Positions 7,793-63,622 of a DNA stretch of 64,000 bases are shown here, piece by piece; positions within the stretch are counted from its first letter, which is position 1, and each line of letters starts with the position of its first letter. The notes under the pieces are model-generated. The model did no database searches. It was not told the origin of the DNA and saw nothing but the letters and a program-made list of their open reading frames with translations. The translations under genes and the position numbers were made by a program. The stretch comes from a virus, in IMG/VR virus record IMGVR_UViG_3300031949_000022, positions 8,397 through 72,396 of that record; one strand, written 5' to 3'.

Positions 7793-8407
7793 TTACGGGC
7801 AGTAGACCGTCAGGGCCACCAGCGTGGGCGCCGTGAGCGCATCGCTGGTCAACACGCGCGTAAACGCGATCGGCTCGATGTCATCTGAGGCTGCGAACGA
7901 ATCCGTCGGAGATCCAACGGCGTCGCCGTACTGCACGTTGACTTGCCCGGCTGTCCCCCGCAGCTTGATCGCCGTGAACGTGTCGCCGGGCTGAGGTGTG
8001 CAGATGTTTCCGCAGCCGATTTCAAAGGCGCCGGCCGTGCTTACCTGCGCTGGAAACACGATGGTCGGAGGGTAGTCGAACGCCTGTACCCCGCGCAGCT
8101 GGTCATTGCCGTCTGCGGTTGCTGGGGTCAGGGACTCCGTGACGGCTATCCCCCCTCGGGTTCCCGTCAGCACGATCGGGTTGGTCGTGTAGGCACCGGC
8201 CGACGATGACCGCGTGATAGTGATGGTGCGCGGGCACTTGAGCCACTTGCTCGCGGATACGGCCGCGCCGTTGTAGTCAGACGGCACCTTGGTCACGATG
8301 CTGGCTGATGTCGCGAACGACGGTTCAACCCCGTTGTCATCGTCCAGATCGGCAGCCGCGAACGTGATAGTACGCCGGGCGCTGTTGATGGGAACTGCAG
8401 AGCTCAT
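7793..8407 (-). CDS. Hypothetical head-module protein (204 aa)
   Basis: ORF track; lies between MuF-like and scaffold genes. Confidence 0.5.
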   Translation of the reverse strand: MSSAVPINSARRTITFAAADLDDDNGVEPSFATSASIVTKVPSDYNGAAVSASKWLKCPRTITITRSSSAGAYTTNPIVLTGTRGGIAVTESLTPATADGNDQLRGVQAFDYPPTIVFPAQVSTAGAFEIGCGNICTPQPGDTFTAIKLRGTAGQVNVQYGDAVGSPTDSFAASDDIEPIAFTRVLTSDALTAPTLVALTVYCP

Positions 8408-11873: not shown

Positions 11874-12519
11874 CGAAGCGCTCCGCTACTGCGGCCTGTA
11901 TTGCTGCCGGGGTGATGACCATCGAGTGTTCTATCGGTCCGCCTTCCGGTCCAGAGTGCTCGAGCTCCATCCGGGTCAGCCCGAATTCCTTGGGCCAGCC
12001 GTGCTCCAGCGCCCACGATGCCGCTTTCAGCCTGATGCCGGCTTCGGCAGCGCGCTCGGGAATGACGGGCTCCCTACGGACCTTCCCATTGCCGTCACGG
12101 TCGATGAACGTACCGTGGGACAGGGCCGCAATCTCGGCCCTCAGCGAGGTTTGCGCTACGGCTCTCGCCGCTCGAAACTGTACCGCCCAGGCGCGAAGTT
12201 CTTCAGGTGCGCGCGGATCTTCCTCGGCCTGTTGTACCCATCCCCGGACTGTCCTGTCAGAAACTCCGACCTCCAAAGCGGCGCCCGTGATGGTTCCAAA
12301 GGTCTGCTGGATGATCTGAATGATCTTTTGGCCCTTTTCCTGGTCCCACTTCAGCACCCAGGCCGGGTTGCCTCCCAGCGGGAGGACCGCTTTGCCAACG
12401 ACCTTCATGGGCAGCGGGGGCTTCGCTTTCGGCTCTTTCGCCCGGCACGTTCGCAGGTTATGCCCGCGCTTCCCGCACCTTCTGCACTTATGCACGCGAA
12501 CAGGGCCTTGTTTGGGCAT
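11821..12519 (-). CDS. Small terminase-like HTH protein with N-terminal CCHC zinc knuckle
   Basis: ORF track (232 aa). Has CRRCGKRGHNLRTC (C-x2-C-x4-H-x4-C) and HTH-like ...GAALEVGVSDRTVRGWV.... Lies directly upstream of terL. Confidence 0.5.
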   Translation of the reverse strand: MPKQGPVRVHKCRRCGKRGHNLRTCRAKEPKAKPPLPMKVVGKAVLPLGGNPAWVLKWDQEKGQKIIQIIQQTFGTITGAALEVGVSDRTVRGWVQQAEEDPRAPEELRAWAVQFRAARAVAQTSLRAEIAALSHGTFIDRDGNGKVRREPVIPERAAEAGIRLKAASWALEHGWPKEFGLTRMELEHSGPEGGPIEHSMVITPAAIQAAVAERFGGKVARKVEDDDDSEES

Positions 12520-12533
12520 ATTTTCCCTACATA

Positions 12534-47612: not shown

Positions 47613-47996
47613 TCAGTCGGGCTTGACGCGGGACAGTGCCGCAATGGCCGTCCCGAGGTTTCCGATGCGCTCGGACCTGCGCTGGACCGCTGAAGCGTCC
47701 AGATCGCCGAAGTTCATCGCTTGCTCGCGGGAGTTGACTTCTCGTCGAAGGTCGGTCGCCAGCAGAAACATGGCGCGCTGGACCGAATCGGACTTGACCT
47801 CTGCTTCCGGGCAGTCCGGCAGCAGATCTCTGTCGTAGGCCAGTTGAGCCACGAACTGGATCAGGCCAGCTACGGCATCCTCCTGCGTTGTCCCCGTAGA
47901 TCCCTCGTCTGGCCTGGACAACAGCGACGCGATGAACCCCTGGCTACCGTCGTCGAACGTGTAGGGCTTGACCGTGTATGAAAATTGATTGGACAT
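47613..47996 (-). CDS. HicB-like (UPF0150-type) protein
   Basis: Internal ATG after GGAGGAAACAAA. MSNQFSYTVKPYTFDDGSQGFIASLLSRPDEGSTGTTQEDAVAGL... HicB N-domain pattern. No HicA seen nearby. Confidence 0.55.
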   Translation of the reverse strand: MSNQFSYTVKPYTFDDGSQGFIASLLSRPDEGSTGTTQEDAVAGLIQFVAQLAYDRDLLPDCPEAEVKSDSVQRAMFLLATDLRREVNSREQAMNFGDLDASAVQRRSERIGNLGTAIAALSRVKPD

Positions 47997-48113
47997 TTTG
48001 TTTCCTCCAGATCGGGAAACCCAGTGGGCCCCGGGTGGATGGTTGAGCGTCGAGTGTAGCACGAGAACCCGTAGTCGTCTGGCCTTTCCGGACGGCGCCG
48101 CCGAATGTGGCGA

Positions 48114-48132
48114 CTGAACTACTGGCGTTCAG
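48114..48132 (-). terminator. Stem-loop CTGAAC-N7-GTTCAG just after the 48137 gene end
   Basis: Read directly; no U-tract; separates the lysis genes from the HicB-like gene. Confidence 0.3.
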
Positions 48133-48136
48133 TGGT

Positions 48137-48799
48137 TCAGAAGCCTGAGGTTCTAGGGTCGCTATACGGGTTTCCCGTATCGCCGGGCGCTCGGACCACA
48201 TCGGTCTCGCGAGGGATGGGGCGCGCCGCCATAGCGTCGGACACCATGCGCCTGATGTCCTGCTCTTGGACACGCTGCGATGCATCCAGTGCCATCCTGG
48301 AGCTTTTGGTGGCGATTTTCTCAACCATCTCATCGGAGACAGTCTGGATCGTCACCTCGCGGGTCTGGTCGCGGACCTCCTTCCGACTCTGTGATAGCTG
48401 ACCCCAAACCGTCAGGATTCCCACAAGCACTGCGGCAATCGGCGCGGCAACAGCCGCAATGATGGTGCGTCGTCCAGACCTTCTGCGGGCCTTCTCGATG
48501 GTCTCGATCCTGGCAGACTGCGCGAGGATGGCCTCTCCCTGCGCCTTCGCCGACCTCTGGATCGATTGGACGCTCTCGTAGATCCTGCGGATCAGGGCCT
48601 CGTAGCCACCGTCCACAGGCGTGAGTTCGCTGGGTGCCATTGGTGGTAGCGACGGCGGCACGAGCGGAGGAAGCGGGTGCACGCGCGAGACTGCCTGCTG
48701 GGTGAGGGCTCCGAGCGGCGGAGTCGGGGCGCGTCTCGGGTGGACCGGGCTCGGCGGAGGCAGTGGCACCCCTGGCAGACCAGGGGCCCACTTGGTCAT
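48137..48799 (-). CDS. Membrane-anchored coiled-coil protein (spanin-like, tentative)
   Basis: ATGA-overlap start. Pro-rich N-terminus, TM ...TIIAAVAAPIAAVLVGILTVW.... Lies in the lysis region. Confidence 0.5.
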   Translation of the reverse strand: MTKWAPGLPGVPLPPPSPVHPRRAPTPPLGALTQQAVSRVHPLPPLVPPSLPPMAPSELTPVDGGYEALIRRIYESVQSIQRSAKAQGEAILAQSARIETIEKARRRSGRRTIIAAVAAPIAAVLVGILTVWGQLSQSRKEVRDQTREVTIQTVSDEMVEKIATKSSRMALDASQRVQEQDIRRMVSDAMAARPIPRETDVVRAPGDTGNPYSDPRTSGF

Positions 48800-49167
48800 G
48801 GGCCCGGCTCCCGACCGTCCACAACAGCGAGTGCCGGCCGGCGCCCGTGGGTCGCCACGCACTGCCCTTCGATCCGGTCGAGCCGATCGGTGTACGTCCG
48901 GAGCAGGGTCAAGATCTCAGCCTGCGATTCCCCGATGCGAAGCACTGCCCGGTGCAGCTCCTCTTGCCGGCGTCCCATCCGGCAGACCTCGTCTCGGTAT
49001 TCCCGGATCTCTCGCCGCATCTCGGCCACCGACTGGACCAGATCACGGATCGCGTCAGGGCCTGCCGGAATGGTATCGTCAACATGGGCGATGGGAGGAG
49101 CCCGGGGGATCTGCCCGATTGGATCGGGCACGGAACTCTCGTTGGGCGGTGGTCGGTCGGCGTTCAT
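48796..49167 (-). CDS. Coiled-coil protein of lysis region (123 aa)
   Basis: ORF track. Confidence 0.5.
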   Translation of the reverse strand: MNADRPPPNESSVPDPIGQIPRAPPIAHVDDTIPAGPDAIRDLVQSVAEMRREIREYRDEVCRMGRRQEELHRAVLRIGESQAEILTLLRTYTDRLDRIEGQCVATHGRRPALAVVDGREPGP

Positions 49168-49967
49168 GCTGCGTCCTTCGGTGGGGGTTCGCTCGGGCTA
49201 CCATCGTCTGCGTCCCCCAGGGTCTGATCGCGCTCCGCTCTCATGTGCTCCCAATCGTCATCATCGAGGCCTATCCATGGGATGGCAGGTGGTCGCACCG
49301 TGTCCGGGACCGGCTCTCCTGGGGCCACAATGAGCGGAAGCTGAGAGCCAGAGCAGAAATCGTGGTCGATGGCTCTCGGGTGCGCATGCTCTCCGCGGTG
49401 CAGCGCCCCGCGTTCCCACGGTCCTACCCGGTACTGGACCAGCGTCGGAGGGATCCCTCCGGGGCTCGCATAGACTCCGGGAGTGGAGCGCCAGTGCGCT
49501 ACCCAGAGCGGGAGCTCGAGCATCCACTCGGGCTTGCCCAGCAGCGCCCAGTCCCGCTGCGTAATGTAGATCCCGGCCTGTCCGAACATCTCCTGCAGTG
49601 ACAGCACGACGTCGTGTAGCTGCTCACACCACTCGGGGCGCGGAGGTATCGAGCCGTCGCCCTTCGGAGACTCGACGTCTACCCATGGGATCAGATCACC
49701 CTCAACGATACCGCAGGCGTCGGCCGCGTCCTCGAATGCACCCATCTGCTCAGACGTGCTCTGCCCCGGGACGTAGAAGTGAAAGAGCCCGACAACGCAC
49801 GCAGTGCGCTTGCGCAATGCCTCAACGTGCTCCACCGTGCGCTTGTCGCGCTTGACGCCGAACGTGGCTCGCACGATCGCGAAGTCGATCATCTGAGGGA
49901 CGAGCCACGTTGGCTGGAACGACGAGATGTCCACGCCGTGCAGTGGGTAGTCGCGGGGAGCAATCAC
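49164..49967 (-). CDS. GH25-family muramidase (endolysin)
   Basis: ORF track (267 aa). ...HGVDISSFQ...FAIVRAT...GLFHFY...WVDVE... GH25 pattern. Confidence 0.8.
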   Translation of the reverse strand: MIAPRDYPLHGVDISSFQPTWLVPQMIDFAIVRATFGVKRDKRTVEHVEALRKRTACVVGLFHFYVPGQSTSEQMGAFEDAADACGIVEGDLIPWVDVESPKGDGSIPPRPEWCEQLHDVVLSLQEMFGQAGIYITQRDWALLGKPEWMLELPLWVAHWRSTPGVYASPGGIPPTLVQYRVGPWERGALHRGEHAHPRAIDHDFCSGSQLPLIVAPGEPVPDTVRPPAIPWIGLDDDDWEHMRAERDQTLGDADDGSPSEPPPKDAA

Positions 49968-51279: not shown

Positions 51280-51950
51280 GGATTGCACTCCCGCACCCAC
51301 GCCGACTCGGCCTCGCTCGACAGGTACTCAGCCGTCACCGCGGTGGCGCCCATGACGCCCGCGCCGATGGCCAGACCGAGCTCGGCGCGCTCGTTGTCGA
51401 CCGGCCAGGTAGCGATGCCGGAAGCGCCCGCTAGGAAAGCGGACCCCTTCGCGACGCCGCCCAGCCACCGGTGCTGATCGTCGAGCGACCGGCACCGCTC
51501 CGTCTGGGGTGGCGCGGAGGCTCGAGCTTGCGGGTTGAGACCGGCAAGACGACTTTCCTCGAACGAACCAGCGCAGCCGCTCACGAGCAGAAGCAGCGTG
51601 GCAGCCACGACAGTGCCAGCAACCTTCGATGCCGGGACCGCTTTCTTGACCAGATGGTAGACGCCCGTCGCTTCCACGCCAGCCCAGAATGCCGCGGCAA
51701 GCTCCGACGCATCGATGCCGTCAGACGCGAACCCCGCCACTACGATCGGGCCTCCGGCGAGGACGAACGGAACGATGGGCTGTGCGAGTCGCGGCCACGT
51801 CGTGATGTCGCACCATGCCGGCAGGAGAGCCCACAGTGTTGGGGCCTCGGACTTCGAGAGCACGCGGGCCGCGAACAAGAGAGCGACGGTTGCCAGCACA
51901 ACGTAGTGCTGGACGCCTGGGGAGTTGAGAAATTCGAGCACTTGGTTCAT
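51276..51950 (-). CDS. Multi-TM membrane protein (holin-like N-half) with internal lipobox-like signal
   Basis: ORF track (224 aa). TM segments in the N-half; mid-protein ...KKAVPASKVAGTVVAATLLLLVSGCAGS.... Confidence 0.5.
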   Translation of the reverse strand: MNQVLEFLNSPGVQHYVVLATVALLFAARVLSKSEAPTLWALLPAWCDITTWPRLAQPIVPFVLAGGPIVVAGFASDGIDASELAAAFWAGVEATGVYHLVKKAVPASKVAGTVVAATLLLLVSGCAGSFEESRLAGLNPQARASAPPQTERCRSLDDQHRWLGGVAKGSAFLAGASGIATWPVDNERAELGLAIGAGVMGATAVTAEYLSSEAESAWVRECNP

Positions 51951-51953
51951 CGG

Positions 51954-52199
51954 TCAATCTTCCTGGCGGTCACCCGCCTCGAGTTGTGAGTGCAGCACGA
52001 CCCCGCCACCGATCGCGACGGTCCCGCCCACGATCATGCAGGCGCCGAGCTCGAATTGGCGGTGCTTGGTCTGGCCGTTGGCGATTCCGCACGCGACCGA
52101 AGCGGTAGCGCCTGCGACGACCATGGCTAGTGCGGCGTCACGCTGCGCGGAGGGGCCGCAAGAAGCGAGGAGAAGAGCGAGTGCAACGAGGCGGGTCAT
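51954..52199 (-). CDS. Small lipoprotein (81 aa)
   Basis: ORF track; MTRLVALALLLASCGPS... lipobox LASC. Confidence 0.5.
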   Translation of the reverse strand: MTRLVALALLLASCGPSAQRDAALAMVVAGATASVACGIANGQTKHRQFELGACMIVGGTVAIGGGVVLHSQLEAGDRQED

Positions 52200-52208
52200 G
52201 TGTCCAGC

Positions 52209-53780
52209 TTATGGCCCGAGGCCATACAATACCACATCCAGCTTAGCGACAACGCGCGCAGTGTGGGCACCAGGGTTCGTCACCGTGAGTAACGCTCCGT
52301 CCTCCGATACAGTCCACACCGCCGTCGGGGCTCCAAAGCCCGTATCCGCGACCTGTGGGTCACCGTCCGCAAACGCTTCCGTGTCGGAATTGACGGGGTT
52401 GACGGAATTGATATGCGGAACGAACGCCGCTCCTTCGCCCTCCGGATTCTCTACCACGCACCTTGCAGCGAGACGTCCAACGGTCTCAAGATGTGGCGCA
52501 CCGCTTACTTGCGACAAGAACACTTCAGCGCTAAGACGCGCTGCCTGGTCAATGGGTATCGGCACGGTCACTACGAACAACCCGCCGCTGCTCGCTGCGG
52601 ACCCTGCCGACACTTGTCCTGGTAGCTCCGTGATGCCGGCCTTGCTGAAGATGTTTGCGGGGAGTAGTGTGGGCGAGTTCTCAATGAGAATCCTGCCGAC
52701 AGTCGAATCAGCGCTGATGTAGTTCGACCTGGCCGGTGGCGTCGGCGGCAGTACAAGGTAGCGGATGTGCACGAAGTCAATGCCGGACATGAGCAACGTC
52801 GGTGCCGCCGACGAGCCAAGGTTGGCAGATCCTCCCGAAAGGGATTCTATGTTGACGGAATTGATGTACTGTAAGTTCATGCCCGCAATCTGCGGCGGCT
52901 GAACCGGAGCGTTACACATGACATTCCGCACTACAAGAGATCGCAACGGATACTCCTCCTGCCCCATCACGCTGACGGGCACGTGTGCACCCTCGTCGAA
53001 CCAACTGTCTACGATCGTCACCATCACATCGCCGCCATTTAGATGATCCCCGACCACCTTGAGCCACCCACTATTCCCCGCGTACTGCACGCCGCTGCTC
53101 ACCCCGTTCAGGAATCCGACATCATACGAGACGCATGAGCCATAATGTACGTGCAGACACCCCTGAATTGTCACCACTGCCCAGCTGTCCGTCTGCGACG
53201 AGCAACAGATCGTAGCACAGTCGTTCACGTGTACGTTCGTACAATAGACGCAATAGAGTACGGAGTGCTGGGACTGCACGTTAAAGATCCGCACGCGCTC
53301 AATCACAGCTAGCTGCGCGATATAGGCAAGCTCAAAGCCGTAGTTACAGCTGTTACCTGCCGAAATTCCCTGTACCGTGAAGTCGGCAAGCCGTACGCAT
53401 TGCAGGTTACCCATCACCGGGGGGTCGAAGCCGTCCAACTGCAGGATAGTCGCGTCGCGTCCAGCTCCGATGAGCTCACACGTAGTTGTGAGGCCGGCAA
53501 AGTTCCAGGTCGTGTTGACGGGCGCCGAGTTCTGCACGTAGAGGCCGGGCGGGATAAAGAGCCGCGTAGCGCTCTTGGTCCCAGGGGACGCCTCTGCAAG
53601 CGCGGACATGAGAGCGTAGGCCTTGTCCCAAGCTGGAGCAATGTCCGTTGATCCCGTAGGATCGGCGCCGCAATCGGCCACGAAGTCGAGATATCCAGTC
53701 GATGCCCACAACACGACAGTTGGCGTTATGGCTGGCACTGATCGGAGGGTGGTGAGCTGTGCGCCAGGTGTCAGTGTCAT
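52209..53780 (-). CDS. Tailspike / fibre with beta-helix (pectate-lyase-like) features
   Basis: ATG 53780 after AAGGAG. ...DFVADCGADPTGSTDIAPAWDKAYA... typical tailspike N-cap. Repetitive Asn/Gly/Val-rich turns. Confidence 0.6.
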   Translation of the reverse strand: MTLTPGAQLTTLRSVPAITPTVVLWASTGYLDFVADCGADPTGSTDIAPAWDKAYALMSALAEASPGTKSATRLFIPPGLYVQNSAPVNTTWNFAGLTTTCELIGAGRDATILQLDGFDPPVMGNLQCVRLADFTVQGISAGNSCNYGFELAYIAQLAVIERVRIFNVQSQHSVLYCVYCTNVHVNDCATICCSSQTDSWAVVTIQGCLHVHYGSCVSYDVGFLNGVSSGVQYAGNSGWLKVVGDHLNGGDVMVTIVDSWFDEGAHVPVSVMGQEEYPLRSLVVRNVMCNAPVQPPQIAGMNLQYINSVNIESLSGGSANLGSSAAPTLLMSGIDFVHIRYLVLPPTPPARSNYISADSTVGRILIENSPTLLPANIFSKAGITELPGQVSAGSAASSGGLFVVTVPIPIDQAARLSAEVFLSQVSGAPHLETVGRLAARCVVENPEGEGAAFVPHINSVNPVNSDTEAFADGDPQVADTGFGAPTAVWTVSEDGALLTVTNPGAHTARVVAKLDVVLYGLGP

Positions 53781-53859
53781 ATCAAACTCCTTATGCTGAT
53801 ATTGTGGTGTACCAATGCCGATTCCGATTCCGATTCGCACCTGTCGTCTTGCTTTCCGA

Positions 53860-55443: not shown

Positions 55444-56052
55444 TCAGCCAGCCGCTAGCGGCTGTGAGAGCACGACTCCCGTGTGCATCCAGATGGTGAG
55501 GCCAGCTGCCCTGCATCGCGCTGAGAAGGCCTGCTCATCCCGCTGTCCCATCACAGTGCTAGTCCAGAGAGCGTGGACCCTGCCGACGTCTGGCACCACG
55601 TAGTGCGCGTTCGGCGACTCCCACATGAGCTGTAGGATTGCCTTCCGCGTGACAAGCAGGAATTCAGCAGGAATGACCGAGCATCGAACGATCTGCCCCT
55701 GACTGTGCGGCTCCGGATCCTCAATGCAAGCAACTACGCGGCCGTCTGATGGGTGATACGTCCCGGACACGACGTCCTTTTCTGCCTCGAGCAGCTGCCT
55801 GACGTGTGTTGCTCTCCACCCGATCTCCGGTGAGACGAGCAGCATGTGGGAGCTGTCAGAGCTCAGAAACTGGGCCGCCAGCACATCCCGACTTTCTTCG
55901 ATGTGCTGACCACGGCGGATGTTGGGCGCTACACCAAACTCCCTGAAGCAGTCGATGCCGCCGAACATGCATTCGAAGTGCACGATACCATTGATCCCTG
56001 TCGGAATCGCAAGATAGGGCTTGAACCCAAATGTCTGCTCGATGCTCATCAT
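55444..56052 (-). CDS. GT-A-like glycosyltransferase, paralog 2 (DxD position reads SPE)
   Basis: ORF track (202 aa). Aligns with 3752..4384 (AIP.., SHML, .IGWRA, VSG.Y, IWMH.GVVL). ATGA overlap with the HxH fibre gene. Confidence 0.5.
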   Translation of the reverse strand: MMSIEQTFGFKPYLAIPTGINGIVHFECMFGGIDCFREFGVAPNIRRGQHIEESRDVLAAQFLSSDSSHMLLVSPEIGWRATHVRQLLEAEKDVVSGTYHPSDGRVVACIEDPEPHSQGQIVRCSVIPAEFLLVTRKAILQLMWESPNAHYVVPDVGRVHALWTSTVMGQRDEQAFSARCRAAGLTIWMHTGVVLSQPLAAG

Positions 56053-57941
56053 GCCACCCGCTTCCAGAATACCACGGCGTAGAACGGCATCACGTTCGAC
56101 GCCTCGTCGGTGTTCTCTCCGCCGCCCTCGTCGGTCGAAGCTTCCGACGACGCGCCGCTCGCGACCTCGGTGCTGTTGCCAGTGCTACCAGAACCTGCGC
56201 CAGTGTCGAACGCGGTGCTGTCGCCGGTGTTGGGGGCGAGGTATGGCTGGCTGGTGTAGAGTGGACTGACGGACGGCTCGGACGTTTGGTTGGCTCCGCC
56301 GTAGCCCGTGTAGTCAGCGTCAGGGCCCGCGCTCGCCAGGTAGCCACCGTTGCCAGTCGTGTCCTGGTCGGGCCCCTGCGAGGCCAGCACGCCACCGTTG
56401 CCAGTTGTGTCCGTGCTCGGTGCGCTGGATGCAACAGTGCCACCGCCGCCCGACAAGTCCGAACTCGGGCCACTGGTCGCTCCAGTTCCTCCGGCGGTAG
56501 TGCTCGCCACGCTAGGCCCGCTTGTCGCTCCATCGCCAGCATTCCCGGTGTCGGCCGCGCTGGACGCTCCCGTGTTGCCGGTTCCGCTCAGTCCCGTGCT
56601 GGCAGCGCTTGACGCGCCCGTCGAACCCGTTCCGTCAGCTCCAGTGTTTCCGGAGGCAGTTCCTGTGTTCCCGCTCCCCTCGTCGCCAGTGGTGGCGTTC
56701 GTGGGAACAGGCTGGCTCGTGTAGGTGGCTCCTTCCAGTTTGCCGCTCGTTGCACTAGCGCCGCCGTACCCAGAGTAGTCAGCGCTTGGACCTCCGCTTG
56801 CCAAGTACCCGCCGTTGCCGGTCGTGTCTGTGTTGGGTCCATCTGACGCCACCGCGCCACCAGCGCCGGTCGTGGCCGCATCTAAGTCCGTCGCCCCAGA
56901 TCCGCTGGCGCAGTCTCCCGTGTTAAGCGTATGGGAATGGCTCGCGCCAAGATGCGTGTGAGCGCTCAGTGTGTGCGCGTGGCTCGCCCCCAGGTGAGTG
57001 TGAGCCGACAGCGTGTGCGTGTGCGAAGGACCCGCATGCGTGTGATCGGATTCCCCATGTGTGTGGTACATGCTGTGCGCATGCAACGGTCCCGTGTGCG
57101 TGTGATTACCGACTGTGTGCGTGTGGCTTGGTCCCGCATGCGTATGGGTGATCGTGTGGTCGTGACTCGGGCCCGCATGCGTATGGGTAATTGTGTGCGC
57201 GTGACTCGGGCCGTTGTGCGTGTGGGTGTTCAGCCCATGCGTGTGAGACCCTCCGTCGTGGGTGTGCGCGCCCAACGAATGGGTGTGCATCGACCCCGTG
57301 TGAGTGTGCGCGCTCAGTGTGTGCGCGTGGCTTGCCCCCAGGTGAGTGTGAGCCGACAGCGTGTGGGCGTGGCTCGCGCCCAGGTGAGTGTGGGCCGACA
57401 GCGTGTGCGTGTGCGAAGGACCCGCATGCGTATGCTCCGGAGTCGCGTGCACATGCGCCATCGGATGGTTGTGCGCTCCCACCGAGTGCACGTGCGTTCC
57501 GATCGGGTGCGCGTGCGCGGTTATTCCGTGCGTGTGCGCCATCCCATGATCGTGGGCCTCGACGTAGTGCGTGTGCGTCTTCGACCCGCCGGTCTCTCCG
57601 AGCACATCCCAGTCCGGGTCGGTGATGTCCTGACCAACCAGCACGCGACCAGCCGCAACCTTTTCCCATGTGCCGTAGCCGAATAATGTTGCAGCGTCAG
57701 TGCCTACTCCGAGATGGATGATTGTTCCGATCGGTAGCTGGGAAGCCGTCGCGGCAGCGTTGCATAGGTCGCACAGAATCGTCGCCAGATTGATCGAGAA
57801 CGTCTCCGTCGACGGGGCCTGAACGCGCCGCGCCTGCGCCGAGACCGTCGACATGAACTGTTGGAAAATGACGTAGCTCAGTCCAGTCCCGGTCGCCCTC
57901 CCGTCCTGTGCGAGGTCGATGCTTCCAACTTCGCAAGCCAT
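56049..57941 (-). CDS. Tail-collar-domain fibre protein with 32 HxH motifs and Ser/Thr/Gly-rich repeat region
   Basis: ORF track (630 aa). ...LPIGTIIHLG...GETGGSKTHTH... and C-terminal ...NVMPFYAVVFWKRVA resemble tail-collar/MdpB-type domains. Confidence 0.7.
   Translation of the reverse strand: MACEVGSIDLAQDGRATGTGLSYVIFQQFMSTVSAQARRVQAPSTETFSINLATILCDLCNAAATASQLPIGTIIHLGVGTDAATLFGYGTWEKVAAGRVLVGQDITDPDWDVLGETGGSKTHTHYVEAHDHGMAHTHGITAHAHPIGTHVHSVGAHNHPMAHVHATPEHTHAGPSHTHTLSAHTHLGASHAHTLSAHTHLGASHAHTLSAHTHTGSMHTHSLGAHTHDGGSHTHGLNTHTHNGPSHAHTITHTHAGPSHDHTITHTHAGPSHTHTVGNHTHTGPLHAHSMYHTHGESDHTHAGPSHTHTLSAHTHLGASHAHTLSAHTHLGASHSHTLNTGDCASGSGATDLDAATTGAGGAVASDGPNTDTTGNGGYLASGGPSADYSGYGGASATSGKLEGATYTSQPVPTNATTGDEGSGNTGTASGNTGADGTGSTGASSAASTGLSGTGNTGASSAADTGNAGDGATSGPSVASTTAGGTGATSGPSSDLSGGGGTVASSAPSTDTTGNGGVLASQGPDQDTTGNGGYLASAGPDADYTGYGGANQTSEPSVSPLYTSQPYLAPNTGDSTAFDTGAGSGSTGNSTEVASGASSEASTDEGGGENTDEASNVMPFYAVVFWKRVA
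56931..57575 (-). repeat. Coding repeat array encoding 32 HxH motifs, including long near-identical DNA blocks
   Basis: CAC/CAT-rich periodic sequence. Blocks around 56950-57045 and 57300-57435 are near-identical. Confidence 0.8.
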
Positions 57942-59044
57942 CAGGATACCGTCAGCCCGCCAGAATGCGCCAGGAACACGACGCCTGAATTCGTGGTGGC
58001 TGGAACCGTCGGTGACGCCGCAGCCAACGCCTCGAGGAACCGGAAATACACCTGCAGAAGCTCAGGCAGCACTGCCGCGCCGTTGGTGGTGTCGGCAGCA
58101 TCATGATAGGTCGTGTCGATTCGGTGTGCCTCGTACGCCCGCCAGATGTCTGCAATCATCAGGCATTGGCTGAGCGGCTCCTGTTCGTTGGCCCCGGCGA
58201 CGATGAGTGCATGGGCCTGGTCCGCCCTCGCCGCCGCTCCGGGTGCGTGAATGTCGATGGTGCCGAAGCCTGCTCCGTCCTCGTCGTTGGTCATGTGCCG
58301 AGTGAGCTTCGTCCTAAGCTCGTTGGCGGACTTCGCTACTCCAGCGGGGCTGCCCGGGACCCGGAAGCTAGCCGCCACCCAGTTGAGCACGTCGGCGTCG
58401 GCGTGGAACGTGCCGCTTGCACGATGCGCTTCGTACTTGACGATCAGGTCATCAATGATGCTCGATGGTGTCCCAAGAGCAGTTGATGCGGCTACTCCGC
58501 TGAGCGCTGCCAGCGCGGCTACGACAGTCGCGCTAGCCACCGCGGTCTTCGCCTTGTCTGTAGTCGGATTGGTCAGTGTAGGAGTAGCTTCTCCGTGGAC
58601 TCCGACCAGCGTCGGCCTGATTGTCGTGCCGTGGACGTAGAGTTCCAGCGTCGCCGTGTCCGGAGGCACGCCAATGTCGGCTGTTACCTTGTTCGCGACG
58701 GTGATGCTCGTCGCAGTCGTGCTGAGCAGCGTCTCCGATGGATAACTATCCGGGTCATCCTTGTATCCGCCCCCGTGTGTCGTCTCGCCGACCGTGTACT
58801 CCTCGGCGGAGAGGACGTAGACCCCACCAACGTCTGGGCGGAAGATCCACGTGTCCTCGATCTCTCCGGACCACAGCCGAATCCTGGTGTCGTCCGTCGC
58901 GTCGAGCTGTGCTTGGATCGATGACCCGGTGGGCCCTGCAGTCGCGTAAACCCGGACCATGTTGCCGGACGTTGCTGTGAACGTCACCAGGCACGGCCTT
59001 CCAGGGATCGGATAGGTGGGGGAAATTGAGAGAGTTACCGACAT
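57941..59044 (-). CDS. Fibre-module structural protein (367 aa)
   Basis: ORF track. Two ...YEAHR....(F/Y)H.(D/A)AD... motifs related to the repeats in 5274..5804. Confidence 0.55.
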   Translation of the reverse strand: MSVTLSISPTYPIPGRPCLVTFTATSGNMVRVYATAGPTGSSIQAQLDATDDTRIRLWSGEIEDTWIFRPDVGGVYVLSAEEYTVGETTHGGGYKDDPDSYPSETLLSTTATSITVANKVTADIGVPPDTATLELYVHGTTIRPTLVGVHGEATPTLTNPTTDKAKTAVASATVVAALAALSGVAASTALGTPSSIIDDLIVKYEAHRASGTFHADADVLNWVAASFRVPGSPAGVAKSANELRTKLTRHMTNDEDGAGFGTIDIHAPGAAARADQAHALIVAGANEQEPLSQCLMIADIWRAYEAHRIDTTYHDAADTTNGAAVLPELLQVYFRFLEALAAASPTVPATTNSGVVFLAHSGGLTVS

Positions 59045-59068
59045 ATCGCCCTGAACGCCTGACCAGCC

Positions 59069-59097
59069 TTACATTTGACCGTCAGGCGCCGTACATT
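59069..59097 (+). promoter_or_regulatory. Promoter-like element for metzincin moron (TTACAT-N17-TACATT), ATG 6 nt after -10
   Basis: Read directly; same geometry as the ASCH promoter. Confidence 0.4.
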
Positions 59098-59103
59098 TGG
59101 AAC

Positions 59104-59628
59104 ATGACTCGAATGGCAGTCCTCTTGGCGCTGGTGGCCCTGGGATGTGCCTACGGGGGTCCCCCGAGCCCTCAGGCTGTAAGCCAGCAGGGAGCCAAGG
59201 AAGTCGTCACCTCGTGGCAGACGGCGGGAGTGTGGAGGGTCACGCTTCACGGGAACGACGAATGGTTGGCTCCGGTTGCTGAGGCTTTCTCTCAGTGGCA
59301 GATGGCGACCAATGGTCAGTTCGGTTCGGATGGCTATCGGATGGCCACGTCCTGTGATGACGGACCCTGCATCGAGGTCGTCGACTTGCTCGATGACTGC
59401 ATCAGGGCAGACGCCGTCGGGTGTGCCGACGCTGTCACCCTGCACATCCGGCTCCTGGACGGCGAGATCTTCTACGCCAAAGCGCTTCACATCGCGCTCC
59501 ACGAGCTGGGGCACACAGTCGGGCTCGAACACTCCGAATCCGGCGTCATGCGCCCCACGTTCTCCATTCCGACCGTGTGCCTCAGCGACGCTGATGTGCT
59601 GTCCATTGGGGGACAGCCAACGTGCTAG
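59104..59628 (+). CDS. Lipoprotein zinc metalloprotease (metzincin motif), opposite-strand moron
   Basis: Internal ATG. MTRMAVLLALVALGC (lipobox), HELGHTVGLEH (HExxHxxGxxH), then ..GVMRP Met-turn-like. Confidence 0.7.
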   Translation: MTRMAVLLALVALGCAYGGPPSPQAVSQQGAKEVVTSWQTAGVWRVTLHGNDEWLAPVAEAFSQWQMATNGQFGSDGYRMATSCDDGPCIEVVDLLDDCIRADAVGCADAVTLHIRLLDGEIFYAKALHIALHELGHTVGLEHSESGVMRPTFSIPTVCLSDADVLSIGGQPTC

Positions 59629-60404
59629 CCGCACTCGATTGCGGTGAAGTCAGCTGTCACCTTGAAGCAATGGACTTCCAATCCAGCAAGCGCGTTGGTC
59701 CCTGACTCTCCCTTGAATGAGATGACGTATCCGTTGTCCGTGTAGAGCGCGGTCGCGAGACCCGTGAGTTGGAAGTTCCATGCGGCTTCGTAGGTTGCTA
59801 CATCAACCCACGGGCACGTCGTCGACGCTATGCTTGTAATGAGCCCAGTGGTCGGCGCCAACCTTCCGAACTGCATTGCTGGTAGTGTTGTCGGCTGGCC
59901 AGCGTGGTTAGCCCCCGTGCCATAGCCCTTCCCGTAGACCGTGACGGTCTGTATGACTGCCCTGCGGCTGATGTTTTCTAGGTTGATCTGGAAGTGGTCG
60001 CCCGCCCCTGGACCAGCACCCTGTTCCCAGTACAGGGCAGCGCCGTAGCTGCTTGTGACATCGAAGTTGTATTTCCCATCTGCAGCACCACCGTACGACG
60101 GCACCAAAAAGAATGACCGCGTGTATGTCGCGGCTCCGAGATTGATGATGTCTCCCAGCAGAATGGTGCATCCGGATGCACCACTCAGTACGGCTCCGTT
60201 TTCAATCGTGACGGTTCGACCCGTTTTCACGTTCCCGTAGAATCCGCCTGTCCCCTGCAGTCCAATCGCCGCAGAAGGCGTGAAGACCCCTCCGGCGTAC
60301 CCGTCCACCGCCCGAGAATGGTCCAGGTCCAGCGCGTTGATCTGCGCGGGGGTCAGCTGATTGCCTGTGCTCCAGCCGCTTGGATTTGCTCGTGAGAATG
60401 TCAT
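59625..60404 (-). CDS. Tail fibre/baseplate-distal protein (259 aa)
   Basis: ATGA-overlap ATG (MTFSRANPSGW...); Gly/Thr/Ala-rich beta-like sequence. Confidence 0.55.
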   Translation of the reverse strand: MTFSRANPSGWSTGNQLTPAQINALDLDHSRAVDGYAGGVFTPSAAIGLQGTGGFYGNVKTGRTVTIENGAVLSGASGCTILLGDIINLGAATYTRSFFLVPSYGGAADGKYNFDVTSSYGAALYWEQGAGPGAGDHFQINLENISRRAVIQTVTVYGKGYGTGANHAGQPTTLPAMQFGRLAPTTGLITSIASTTCPWVDVATYEAAWNFQLTGLATALYTDNGYVISFKGESGTNALAGLEVHCFKVTADFTAIECG

Positions 60405-61564
60405 AGCGCGTCGATCCCGAGTCTCGAAATTCCAATCAGGAACCCTGCGCTGGTGTCGACGTCCCACGCGAAGGTGGCGTGCGCCGGCAGGGCGAGATCC
60501 ATGAGACGGAAGTATTTGACCTCCATCAGCTGAAGAAACTGCGTAGTGTCTAGACTAGGCGGCCACGATACCTCCGCCCAAACGTGACACCTTCCGCTCG
60601 ACCACTGGTAGCCACAGAGGCCATACGTCGGATCGCCTGGGTCTCCGTTGGGCCAGAACGTGTTCTCTGGTGGAGAATCGAGGGCTCCGGTGTTGTTGCG
60701 GTGAACGGCCACTAGGTTGTCCCCGAAGAGCTCAGCGAGCGCTGCGTTGATGTTGGCAGGGGTGCACCCCGTGAGCAGCTTCATCCGCACCGAGCAGTCC
60801 CGGCGCACCTCCCAGTCGGGGGTTGATGAGCCCGTCTGAACCCGGAAGCACTGGGCCCATGTGGGCAGCAGGTCCGTAGCGGTCGCCGGCACGCAATTGT
60901 TGGTGAAGCGCTCGATCGCCCGTTGGATTCCTGACCCGTAGAGCCTAGCTAGCGCGAGCTTCTGGCAGTGTACGAGCCCGGTTCGGTTCTTGGTGAACGC
61001 GCTGCCCAGCATGTCCTCGAATTCGAGGTACCAGCTCCAAGCGTAGGGCGTGGACTCGTCCTCGGTCTGTGACTTGTCCAGGTCGCCGCCATAGTCCTCG
61101 ATCTGGTAGTCGTCGCCGACGGTCCCGTAGACCCGCAGCGTCATCTTGATGTTGGTGGCCGCTCCCGCGATGCTGGTACTCGTCACCGTGATGACGTTGT
61201 TTCCAGAGAACTCCGACATCACTACATAGGGCGTCGCCCCGTCTACCGTCGCGCGGGCTCCTGTGATCGAGACGCGCCGGGCTACCCCGTGCGGATCCTC
61301 GAAGGATGCCGGGAACGTGATGGTACTGATCCCCGTCCCGCCATCGGCCACCGTCGGAGCGTCCGCCGTGTCGCAGCTGTTCCATCCATGGTAGGCGTGG
61401 ATAGTCGGTGATGCCCCCTGGGTGAACGTGATGTTGGCGATCGGCACCGTGCGTCGGGCCGCGATCAGATCAGCCACGAGCCGCAGGTACTGGGCAGCCG
61501 ACACCCCGATCTCGGAGGCGTTCCCGGTGAGCCGGAGCGGGATGGGAGCCAGGGCGCCGAACAC
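60401..61564 (-). CDS. Baseplate protein, Mu gp48 / DUF2313-like C-terminal region (tentative)
   Basis: ORF track (387 aa), one small ORF (61566..62105) downstream of the J-like gene. N-terminal ~170 aa are paralogous to 61566..62105. Confidence 0.55.
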   Translation of the reverse strand: MFGALAPIPLRLTGNASEIGVSAAQYLRLVADLIAARRTVPIANITFTQGASPTIHAYHGWNSCDTADAPTVADGGTGISTITFPASFEDPHGVARRVSITGARATVDGATPYVVMSEFSGNNVITVTSTSIAGAATNIKMTLRVYGTVGDDYQIEDYGGDLDKSQTEDESTPYAWSWYLEFEDMLGSAFTKNRTGLVHCQKLALARLYGSGIQRAIERFTNNCVPATATDLLPTWAQCFRVQTGSSTPDWEVRRDCSVRMKLLTGCTPANINAALAELFGDNLVAVHRNNTGALDSPPENTFWPNGDPGDPTYGLCGYQWSSGRCHVWAEVSWPPSLDTTQFLQLMEVKYFRLMDLALPAHATFAWDVDTSAGFLIGISRLGIDAL

Positions 61565-62107: not shown

Positions 62108-63622
62108 CTAAATCTCGTAGATCCCGAAGCGTCGCGGGACGAAGATGTTGGGGGCCGTGTTGATGCTCGCCGGAACGGTCGGTGACGTTGCGCTCCGGTA
62201 TGAGTACTGGCTATCCGTGATCTCGACGTTCTTCCCCTGGAAGGCGAGCAGCTCACTAGAGGTCAATCCGGATCGTGGGCCATCGGAGATGAACGGGCGC
62301 CGGTTGTCACGTGGTGCAATGCCGGAGGCACTGATGTTCTCTCCGGCCCCGAGCGTCTCCATGATGTCGGTCCAGGCTTTCGCGTAGCCCTCGGAGTTCT
62401 CCATCCCAGGGCTGACGTAGTCCCCGATCGCGGGCTCGTTTCCCGCTGCGTCAACGAGCGGAGCCTCGAGCGTCAGCACCCATGCAGTGGTCGCACCGCT
62501 GTGGGCCGTGACCAGCTGTCGCACGAACGAACATGTCGCCGGAGACCACCATTCGATGTGTGTCTGCCCGTCGAGCGGGGCTGTGCTCGTCGTTGCGTTG
62601 ACAGTGATGCTCGGGGTAGAACTCGAAACGGCCGTGATTGCCACCCGCGTGTCCCCGCCGTCGAGCGGCGGCCATGAAGCGACGTCGATCCAGCCGTTGC
62701 CGTTGCCTCCCGCGAGCTTCGATGCCGGGATCGTGACCTGGATCGCGACGTCGAGGCTTTCGTCTGCTGCCGCCTGCACCACGTACTGCGCCGCGTCGTT
62801 CGAGTAGGACTGGATGGCCGTGCGGACGATGGTGACGGCCGCGCTGCTCATCGACCGGCTGAAGCTGTTCAGGTCGCGGTAGAACCCGCGGACCGGTACA
62901 ATCTTCGTGCTGCCTGGCCCACCGAGCGCGGGGTAAACGAAACACATCTGGACGCTGGCCAGGGCATCGAGCGCCAGCTTGACCAGCCCTCCCCAGTTGC
63001 CCGAGGTGTCGGCCGCGTTGGCCATGCGGTTCAGGATCCGTTCCAGCTTCCGCGCTGGTGTCTCCGCGTCCTCACCTCCGACCAGGGGCCGCTCGTAGCT
63101 GACGATCGCCTCGGGGTCGATGTTCGTTGGCGCGCTCGCAAACCGGACCTTCGTCCCGCCAATTGCGTTGACGTCCTCGCCCTTGTCGAGCGAGACGACC
63201 GGGATCTCGGCCCCGTCTGCAACTCCCAGCGAGTCCCCGTCTGCCTCGATTCGCCGCCCGTTGGGGAGGACCATAACGGTCCCGTCGGTGACGTCCCCGG
63301 TTCCGGTCACGGTCAGGCGAAGAGCCCCCGTCGAAACACTCGGATCGACCTCTGGGAGCCCCAGTGCGATCCGCCAGCGTTCTAGGTCGTCTCCGCTCGA
63401 ATGGAGCGGGGTGATGCTGGCGGACGCAGCAGCAATCTGCGAGTACTGGACCATTGCCGCGTTCGCGACGGCCGTCATCCAAATGTGCGTGTCGGTACCG
63501 GGCGTGATCGCCAACGTGGTCCCGAGCTGGTACATGGACAGCCTGATGTCGGTCAGCAGGTCGTTGAGGACCACGGCGGCCGAGTCGGGGACCCAAAGCT
63601 TGCCGATCTCTGGCTCGGTCAT
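62108..63622 (-). CDS. Baseplate J-like protein (Mu gp47-like)
   Basis: ORF track (504 aa); size and position after the gp25/W-like gene. Confidence 0.7.
   Translation of the reverse strand: MTEPEIGKLWVPDSAAVVLNDLLTDIRLSMYQLGTTLAITPGTDTHIWMTAVANAAMVQYSQIAAASASITPLHSSGDDLERWRIALGLPEVDPSVSTGALRLTVTGTGDVTDGTVMVLPNGRRIEADGDSLGVADGAEIPVVSLDKGEDVNAIGGTKVRFASAPTNIDPEAIVSYERPLVGGEDAETPARKLERILNRMANAADTSGNWGGLVKLALDALASVQMCFVYPALGGPGSTKIVPVRGFYRDLNSFSRSMSSAAVTIVRTAIQSYSNDAAQYVVQAAADESLDVAIQVTIPASKLAGGNGNGWIDVASWPPLDGGDTRVAITAVSSSTPSITVNATTSTAPLDGQTHIEWWSPATCSFVRQLVTAHSGATTAWVLTLEAPLVDAAGNEPAIGDYVSPGMENSEGYAKAWTDIMETLGAGENISASGIAPRDNRRPFISDGPRSGLTSSELLAFQGKNVEITDSQYSYRSATSPTVPASINTAPNIFVPRRFGIYEI

Follow-up and report, generated by a model that had tools for sequence, protein, structure and literature searches.

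A phage gene with 32 consecutive HxH motifs encodes a candidate hairpin-needle tail fibre

A complete gene with a regular histidine array

The window considered here is a 64,000-nucleotide stretch of viral DNA (positions 8,397 to 72,396 of IMG/VR virus record IMGVR_UViG_3300031949_000022), and the subject of this analysis is a gene on its minus strand whose product, probably a phage tail fibre, carries an array of histidine-x-histidine (HxH) motifs between the two parts of a split collar domain. The open reading frame (ORF) is complete from ATG to stop and encodes 630 amino acids (aa). Its parts are given below from the N-terminus to the C-terminus, followed by the gene immediately downstream; the strands of the needle are named according to the structure proposed for the protein.

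56049-57941, minus strand: fibre gene, an ATG-to-stop ORF of 630 aa with a 633-aa orthologue, 77% identical, at locus L017
57747-57941, minus strand: N-terminal domain (aa 1-65), two short beta-hairpin strands and a long helix in the AlphaFold2 (AF2) monomer
57576-57746, minus strand: first part of the collar, a Gp10_C-type domain (aa 66-122, LPIGTIIHLG...GETGGSKT), matching Pfam PF21939 with E=1.3e-6
56931-57575, minus strand: putative outward needle strand of 32 HxH heptads (aa 123-337), defined by regular-expression count, shuffles and histidine conservation
56859-56930, minus strand: presumed tip loop (aa 338-361, TLNTGDCASGSGATDLDAATTGAG), placed by its position between the two strands, with inferred boundaries
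56097-56858, minus strand: putative return strand (aa 362-615), rich in G, S, T, A, D and N with an 8/16-residue period, defined by autocorrelation and length covariation
56049-56096, minus strand: C-terminal collar strand NVMPFYAVVFWKRVA (aa 616-630) and stop codon, a strand in the AF2 model that aligns with gp10
55444-56052, minus strand: translationally coupled partner gene of 202 aa, its ATG overlapping the fibre stop codon by 4 nt, an arrangement found in three contigs

A regular-expression count on the 630-aa ORF finds exactly 32 non-overlapping HxH motifs. It thereby bears out the coordinates, the 64 histidines in 215 aa and the list of motif types given in a first-pass annotation, which had singled out the array from the sequence and predicted a rigid rod with a column of metal sites. 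The start-to-start distance between successive motifs is seven residues in 26 cases and six in the other five, making 31 successive spacings of six or seven, compared with a maximum of eight in 100,000 shuffles of the array's own 215 residues. The middle residue is threonine in 20 motifs and alanine in six, with two each of aspartate and valine and one each of asparagine and serine.

Gene calls on the source contig (ENA ERZ27256953 k141_5950653, 72,376 bp) include the same gene of 630 aa, and the orthologue, which retains all 32 motifs, lies on the IMG/VR contig IMGVR_UViG_3300025146_000015 (loci L002 and L017), where the fibre gene has 78% nucleotide identity to that of the window. Over the 214 aligned codons of the array, 25 amino-acid replacements are found alongside 85 changes that are synonymous only, and none of the 64 histidines is replaced, an outcome with a hypergeometric probability of 7e-5 if the 25 replacements were placed at random. 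The nucleotide differences from the orthologue number 26, 25 and 97 at the first, second and third codon positions of the 630-aa frame. This frame, which the first-pass annotation had taken to be coding, is translated and under purifying selection; the excess of synonymous changes and the third-position bias rule out the reading of the region as an untranslated repeat or as an antisense ORF. Two further ORFs extend over the array, one of 251 aa antisense to it (56931-57686, plus strand) and one of 187 aa out of frame with it (57106-57669, minus strand), with products that are rich in R, V and M or in R, A and H. They are open because the repeat happens to lack stop codons in those frames, and the codon-position bias and synonymous excess in the 630-aa frame therefore identify them as artefacts of the repeat, which gene finders could nevertheless miscall.

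A split collar and the evidence for a returning chain

The sequence on both sides of the needle region is related to a single collar-type domain. PF21939 (Gp10_C) matches aa 70-182 with 29.8 bits, above the gathering cut-off of 27, and the C-terminal domain of the T4 baseplate protein gp10 (2FKK) aligns with aa 69-124, while profiles built from the family match the same gp10 domain with E=1.7e-17 and 1.2e-14. One of these profiles, A2, covers the gp10 domain at its N-terminal part and again at its last strand, and in the family profile searches the C-terminal NVMPFYAVVFWKRVA of the window protein aligns with NIQPYITVYRWIRIA, the last collar-type strand of gp10. The AF2 monomer of the full protein is confident only at aa 1-110 and in a strand at aa 619-627, where the predicted local distance difference test (pLDDT) score is ~90. 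The window protein thus shares its collar-type frame with gp10 and PF21939, both halves matching, and differs from the gp10 domain in having ~490 residues where the latter has only a short insert. As the collar is split by this insertion, the chain must exit the collar and come back to it.

The first-pass annotation had likened the flanks of the array to the phage tail collar/MdpB family. That comparison holds in so far as Gp10_C or collar-type sequence is present on both sides, but PF07484 (Collar) itself has no match to the window protein at E<=1. Many homologues carry either PF21939 or PF07484, and the PHROG matches of the window protein are to tail fibre proteins. The N-terminal domain that precedes the collar is modelled with a pLDDT of 86-95 (strands at aa 6-9 and 15-18, helices at 19-29 and 34-65), is conserved in the relatives P0001 and P0081 and in L017, and would presumably attach the protein to the baseplate.

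Beyond the array and a loop of ~24 residues, ~255 residues are rich in glycine, serine, threonine, alanine, aspartate and asparagine. The strongest autocorrelation lag in this region of the window protein is 16, and lags of 8, 16 and 24 predominate in most, not all, of ten family members tested. The length of this part of the protein also scales with that of the array. Among 68 collar-type relatives, the length of all sequence after the array is correlated with the array span (r=0.86, slope 1.24, intercept 68 aa). When the comparison is confined to the small-residue region, the correlation has r=0.81 and a slope of 1.17 where that region follows the array (n=46), and r=0.66 with a slope of 1.10 where it precedes the array, as it does in a set of siphovirus Tal-like proteins (n=22). 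These slopes lie near 8/7 (1.14), the value that corresponds to one octad for each heptad.

Both halves of the needle region contain internal duplicates, which are as follows.

57300-57437, minus strand: duplicate A (aa 169-214), part of the HxH strand and 87-93% identical to A' at the nucleotide level
56937-57047, minus strand: duplicate A' (aa 299-335), likewise in the HxH strand, with A lying 19 motifs upstream
56559-56918, minus strand: duplicate B (aa 342-461), in the putative return strand, recognised by local alignment to B'
56097-56441, minus strand: duplicate B' (aa 501-615), also in the putative return strand, with B lying 159 aa (~20 octads) upstream

The local alignment of B to B' scores 271, compared with 97.5 +/- 10.6 for shuffled sequence, and the two offsets match, at 19 heptads in the HxH strand and ~20 octads in the other. 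The nested order, with A and A' on one side of the tip and B and B' on the other, is as expected of a hairpin lengthened equally on both strands. Since the duplications are common to the window gene and its L017 orthologue, they are older than the split of the two phages, and the 11-15 motifs of the close relatives P0002 and P0001 imply that the needle has probably been about doubled. The nesting itself suggests one of two routes to the greater length: a copy of the hairpin was inserted at the tip, or two corresponding duplications took place.

Taken together, the length scaling, the 7:8 ratio of the units, the matching offsets of the duplications and the return of the C-terminus to the collar provide indirect evidence that the chain doubles back and that the G/S/T-rich second half is a return strand pairing with the outward one. 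The C-terminal half would accordingly not be a mere flank of the array, as it had first been described.

This arrangement resembles that of two solved fibres. Published accounts of the T4 gp37 tip describe a collar followed by a six-stranded needle whose chain doubles back at a head domain; the tip is trimeric, and its HxH motifs, contributed by all three chains, hold Fe ions through six histidines. The sequence of this tip (read from AF158101) comprises a YPIG-type collar start, strands with HxH motifs and S/T/G-rich sequence, and a C-terminal NIAFNYIVRLA. Its HxH motifs number seven, three on the outward and four on the returning strand. The order of collar, needle, doubling back and C-terminal collar strand in gp37 (2XGF) is that proposed for the window protein, and in both HxH motifs on one strand would be paired with S/T/G-rich sequence on the other. 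They differ in that the seven motifs of gp37 are distributed over both strands, at spacings of 9-32 residues, and its needle carries a globular head, whereas all 32 motifs of the window protein are on the outward strand, with a strict period of seven (or six) residues, an octad partner strand and no head. The window protein has no globular distal domain, only the ~24 small residues of the loop lying between its two strands; shorter homologues have an aromatic-rich segment of 50-70 aa at the same position.

Among solved fibres, the family profiles reach just one, the arm of gp34, the long tail fibre (LTF) protein of Anabaena phage A-1(L) (PDB 8KEC). It is matched with E=1.1e-9 by profile A2 and with E=1.8e-4 by profile A1, which includes the window protein, and the match extends over the HxH region, the S/T/N/G-rich return and the C-terminal strand of the arm. 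This gp37-like arm of 224 residues is 180 Å long and binds host cells. It has the strand order proposed here, with HxH on the outward strand, and differs from the window protein in the number of motifs (~5-6 in 224 residues, against 32 in ~565) and in having a different N-terminal shoulder domain, of 155 aa. The strict seven-residue pitch, the confinement of the motifs to the outward strand, the octad partner and the lack of a head set the window protein apart from both gp37 and this arm. The same principle, by which HxH motifs of three chains surround an axial ion, is found in the P2 gpV apex, the Bas63 spike tip, R-pyocin fibres and the phi11 receptor-binding protein, but these have one HxH-Fe site per trimer, unrelated folds and no repeat array.

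Relatives of the array and the genes around it

An exhaustive search recovered 3,061 representative relatives at E<=1e-3, of which 223 sequences were inspected. Runs of at least ten motifs are present in 45 of these, and of at least 20 in seven (41, 28, 25, 25, 22, 22 and 20 motifs). The 32 motifs of the window protein are therefore not a record, since P0084, a Prophage_tail-type siphovirus protein, has 41. Among the 68 collar-type proteins that passed the motif filters 32 is the maximum and 17 the next value, the longest collar-type relatives missed by those filters being P0088 (25) and P0056 (20). A scan of IMG/VR for 12 consecutive motifs of period seven found 15 loci in 2.9 million contigs; approximately 11 of the 15 represent genuine fibre genes. 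These contain 12-32 motifs, the orthologue of the window gene being the longest. A query with the array alone returned just eight protein matches, probably as a consequence of composition filtering.

No curated Pfam family covers the HxH arrays themselves in the long-array homologues, and a literature search for long HxH arrays in tail fibres found only 6-7 motifs described, none exceeding ~7. The first-pass annotation was consequently right that the array is several-fold longer than those of characterised fibres (32 motifs against 6-7, or ~4-5 times as long). Its suggestion that the copy number is unprecedented survives as regards described fibres, but not as regards homologues, among which long arrays are not rare, although none of those carrying them is characterised and several have 20-41 motifs. 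The array of the window protein is thus not unique but stands at the far end of a range of array lengths that is widespread, though undescribed.

The metagenomic Tal-like proteins P0084, P0004, P0005, P0059 and P0190, which belong to the siphovirus Prophage_tail family (PF06605), have period-seven arrays of 22-41 motifs together with a G/S/T/N-rich region ~1.1-1.3 times as long as the array, in the manner of the paired module of the window protein. They differ from it in that the small-residue region comes first and the HxH array second, in lacking a collar and in having a different N-terminal domain. This reversal of module order implies that a heptad/octad rod is used in two gene architectures. 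When loci L007, L010 and L015 are considered with these five proteins, the G/S/T/N-rich region is seen to be followed by 14-41 HxH heptads; an extra C-terminal domain of ~100 aa, ending ...TIDAQLSVRNTIQAIAY, follows the heptads in the Tal-like proteins.

A scan of GTDB with a DNA pattern for 12 period-seven HxH motifs was uninformative on prevalence, with one fibre-like locus (L071) among the 120 matches listed, the others being poly-His tracts, 21-nt tandem repeats and unrelated metal-binding proteins. These include a group of cellular proteins, several of them from Rhodobacteraceae, with period-seven HGHxHDD repeats (L023, L025, L061, L079, L101, L113 and L137). Several end in ...LMRNxAQAIADCV, and they are unrelated to phage fibres and metal-binding-like in composition.

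The fibre gene sits in a baseplate and tail-fibre module of myovirus type. A Baseplate_J gene (62108-63622) and a weak, sub-threshold match to Mu gp48 (60401-61564) lie upstream of it on the same strand, and genes for the major head protein, portal and large terminase are found at ~5.8-11.9 kb of the window, which also encodes a DNA methyltransferase, an exonuclease and a ParB-like protein; no tRNA genes are present in the window. Within the tail module, a 200-aa ORF on the opposite strand (59026-59628, plus) contains the matrixin-type zinc-protease motif HELGHTVGLEH (Pfam Peptidase_M10, E=1e-6) and a hydrophobic N-terminal stretch that by eye resembles a lipoprotein signal (MTRMAVLLALVALGCAYG). 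Part of its span is shared with an ORF of 199 aa on the minus strand (59035-59634), for which there are no matches.

No close relative or near-identical record was found among 50,697 deposited phage genomes, and a tblastn search against cultured phages gave two matches only, both at the level of the collar. Comparison of the window with L017 reveals a mosaic of modules. The cassette of fibre and partner gene is conserved, and the blocks at 47657-49168 and 51447-52181 have 86-91% nucleotide identity, while for the ORFs at 57941-59044 and 52209-53840 no similarity to the genes in the corresponding positions of L017 could be detected. These two variable ORFs may be host-range determinants.

The partner gene directly follows an HxH fibre gene, with the 4-nt overlap, in the window, in L017 and in L139. 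The L017 copy (11899-12528) has 42% identity to that of the window, and the L139 copy (P0233, 8001-8579), which adjoins the 11-motif fibre P0002, has 71%. No match to the window copy was found in sequence and profile searches of Pfam, NCBIfam and PDB. Its phage homologues are few and are annotated as Mnn9/A197-like transferases, one family member matching the PHROG family 'glycosyltransferase'. At the position of the D-x-D motif the window copy has SPE; of five aligned homologues, four have the aspartate and three the full motif. From these sequence comparisons, the partner may be a GT-A-like glycosyltransferase acting on the S/T-rich strand, or else an assembly factor or chaperone of the fibre.

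Proposed structure, alternative readings and significance

On balance, the gene is likely to encode a homotrimeric tail fibre of a contractile-tailed phage that consists almost wholly of an extended needle of T4 gp37 type. Beyond its short attachment domain and the opening portion of the collar, each chain would run outward as 32 HxH heptads, turn in a small loop without a globular head and return as ~32-35 G/S/T-rich octads, the last 15 residues completing the collar. The two histidines of each heptad (i and i+2, on the same face of the strand) would meet the equivalent pairs of the other two chains on the axis. With six ligands per site, this would create up to ~32 octahedral metal sites in a single column, occupied by Fe2+ or Zn2+ by analogy, and the column would staple the six-stranded rod. 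The axis-facing histidines and the binding of metal are proposed because of homology and simple geometry; the trimeric state, the occupancy and identity of the metal, the length of the rod and receptor binding at the tip are likewise put forward by analogy. If scaled by residue number from the 180-Å, 224-residue arm of A-1(L), the 565-residue collar and needle would form a rod ~45-50 nm long, a length probably reached through duplication adding equal numbers of heptads and octads.

Several observations weigh against this interpretation. Neither sequence nor profile searches found a direct match of the window protein or its family to gp37 (2XGF) itself; the solved structures that are matched include gp10 (2FKK) and the gp37-like 8KEC. 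The best PDB sequence match is to gp10, a baseplate protein and not a fibre, and the period of 7/8 residues is not that of the T4 needle, whose spacing is of the 9/10 type, so that the detailed geometry may differ. In AF2 monomers of both the full protein and the short homologue P0081, the HxH and G/S/T regions have a pLDDT below 50; Foldseek searches with the AF2 monomers gave weak matches, the best being to gp10. The length correlations are uncorrected for phylogenetic relatedness and depend on the chosen definitions of motif and of low complexity. Finally, the lack of a head domain makes a receptor-binding role of the tip uncertain.

A more far-reaching reading, which we put forward only tentatively, holds that the pair of HxH heptad and G/S/T octad constitutes a distinct and undescribed modular repeat fold. 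This would be a length-adjustable, metal-stapled rod occurring in two opposite topologies, in the collar fibres and in the Tal-like proteins, extended by phages through the addition of equal numbers of units to the two strands, with a geometry other than that of the irregular T4 needle and a column of ~32 metal ions per fibre at close and regular intervals. If six such fibres were present, a virion might carry ~190 metal ions, several times the load of T4; the rod would possibly also be glycan-coated by the coupled transferase-like gene.

A role for that gene is central to a different account, in which the HxH rod is real but the G/S/T half is a loose, possibly O-glycosylated and mucin-like coat spanning the rod, with the downstream gene as its glycosyltransferase. 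The extreme serine and threonine content of the region, its lack of predicted structure, the conservation of the downstream ORF with the fibre in three contigs and the transferase annotations among the homologues of that ORF would all be consistent with such a coat. However, the regular period of 8/16 residues in most of the family members tested, and a near 1:1 coupling to the heptads, fit an ordered register better than a loose tether. Furthermore, the S/T/G-rich strands of the solved relatives gp37 and 8KEC are ordered, and the window copy of the putative transferase has SPE in place of D-x-D and no Pfam or PDB match. A disordered coat consequently seems unlikely.

That the best database matches are to gp10 C-terminal domains, and that a head domain is lacking, could instead indicate a gp10-like structural protein or strut of the baseplate, in which the needle would be a spacer, a trigger or an element sensitive to pH or metal, and hosts would be recognised by the variable neighbours. 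The fibre is 77% conserved between the two phages, while the large ORFs that flank it lack detectable similarity, which is in keeping with this division of labour, as host-range genes often vary in that way. Yet T4 gp10 is a 602-aa baseplate wedge protein without a long HxH array, and the matches are limited to its C-terminal part (residues from ~400 onward). Its N-terminal and middle domains were not found in the window protein, which has only 65 residues before the collar. The PHROG matches to tail fibre proteins also argue against a strut, as do homologues of the same layout, which include the A-1(L) LTF with its host-binding arm. The gp10-type collar fold is in any case common to T4 gp12, which binds Zn, and gp37. 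A baseplate strut is therefore considered improbable.

Least credible is a sequence without a structural function, whether a histidine-rich protein for the storage or buffering of metal or a repeat that is untranslated or due to chance: the many unrelated cellular proteins and non-coding tandem repeats with period-seven histidines in the GTDB scan are a precedent for it, but the collar domain, the fibre-gene context, the placement of the array within a family of phage fibre proteins, the diversity of its middle and linker residues, unlike a simple tandem DNA repeat, and above all the strong purifying selection with third-codon-position bias effectively refute it.

If the gene does encode an extended fibre needle of gp37 type, then the fibre would contain one of the longest known regular series of axial, protein-bound metal sites, with ~32 per trimer at a fixed pitch of seven residues. 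It would offer a clean repeat system in which to study how stapling by HxH and metal affects the stiffness, length and assembly of fibres, and would be a candidate scaffold for metal-loaded protein nanorods. The relationship between the two strands, in which the small-residue region exceeds the HxH array in length by a factor of ~8/7 whichever comes first, is a simple sequence signature by which thousands of unassigned phage fibre and Tal-like proteins could be annotated. For the phages themselves, the same structure would illustrate the evolutionary lengthening of a hairpin rod, in which heptads and octads must be added in step, and would raise estimates of the metal carried per virion, which bears on the proposal that phage tails constitute a pool of iron.

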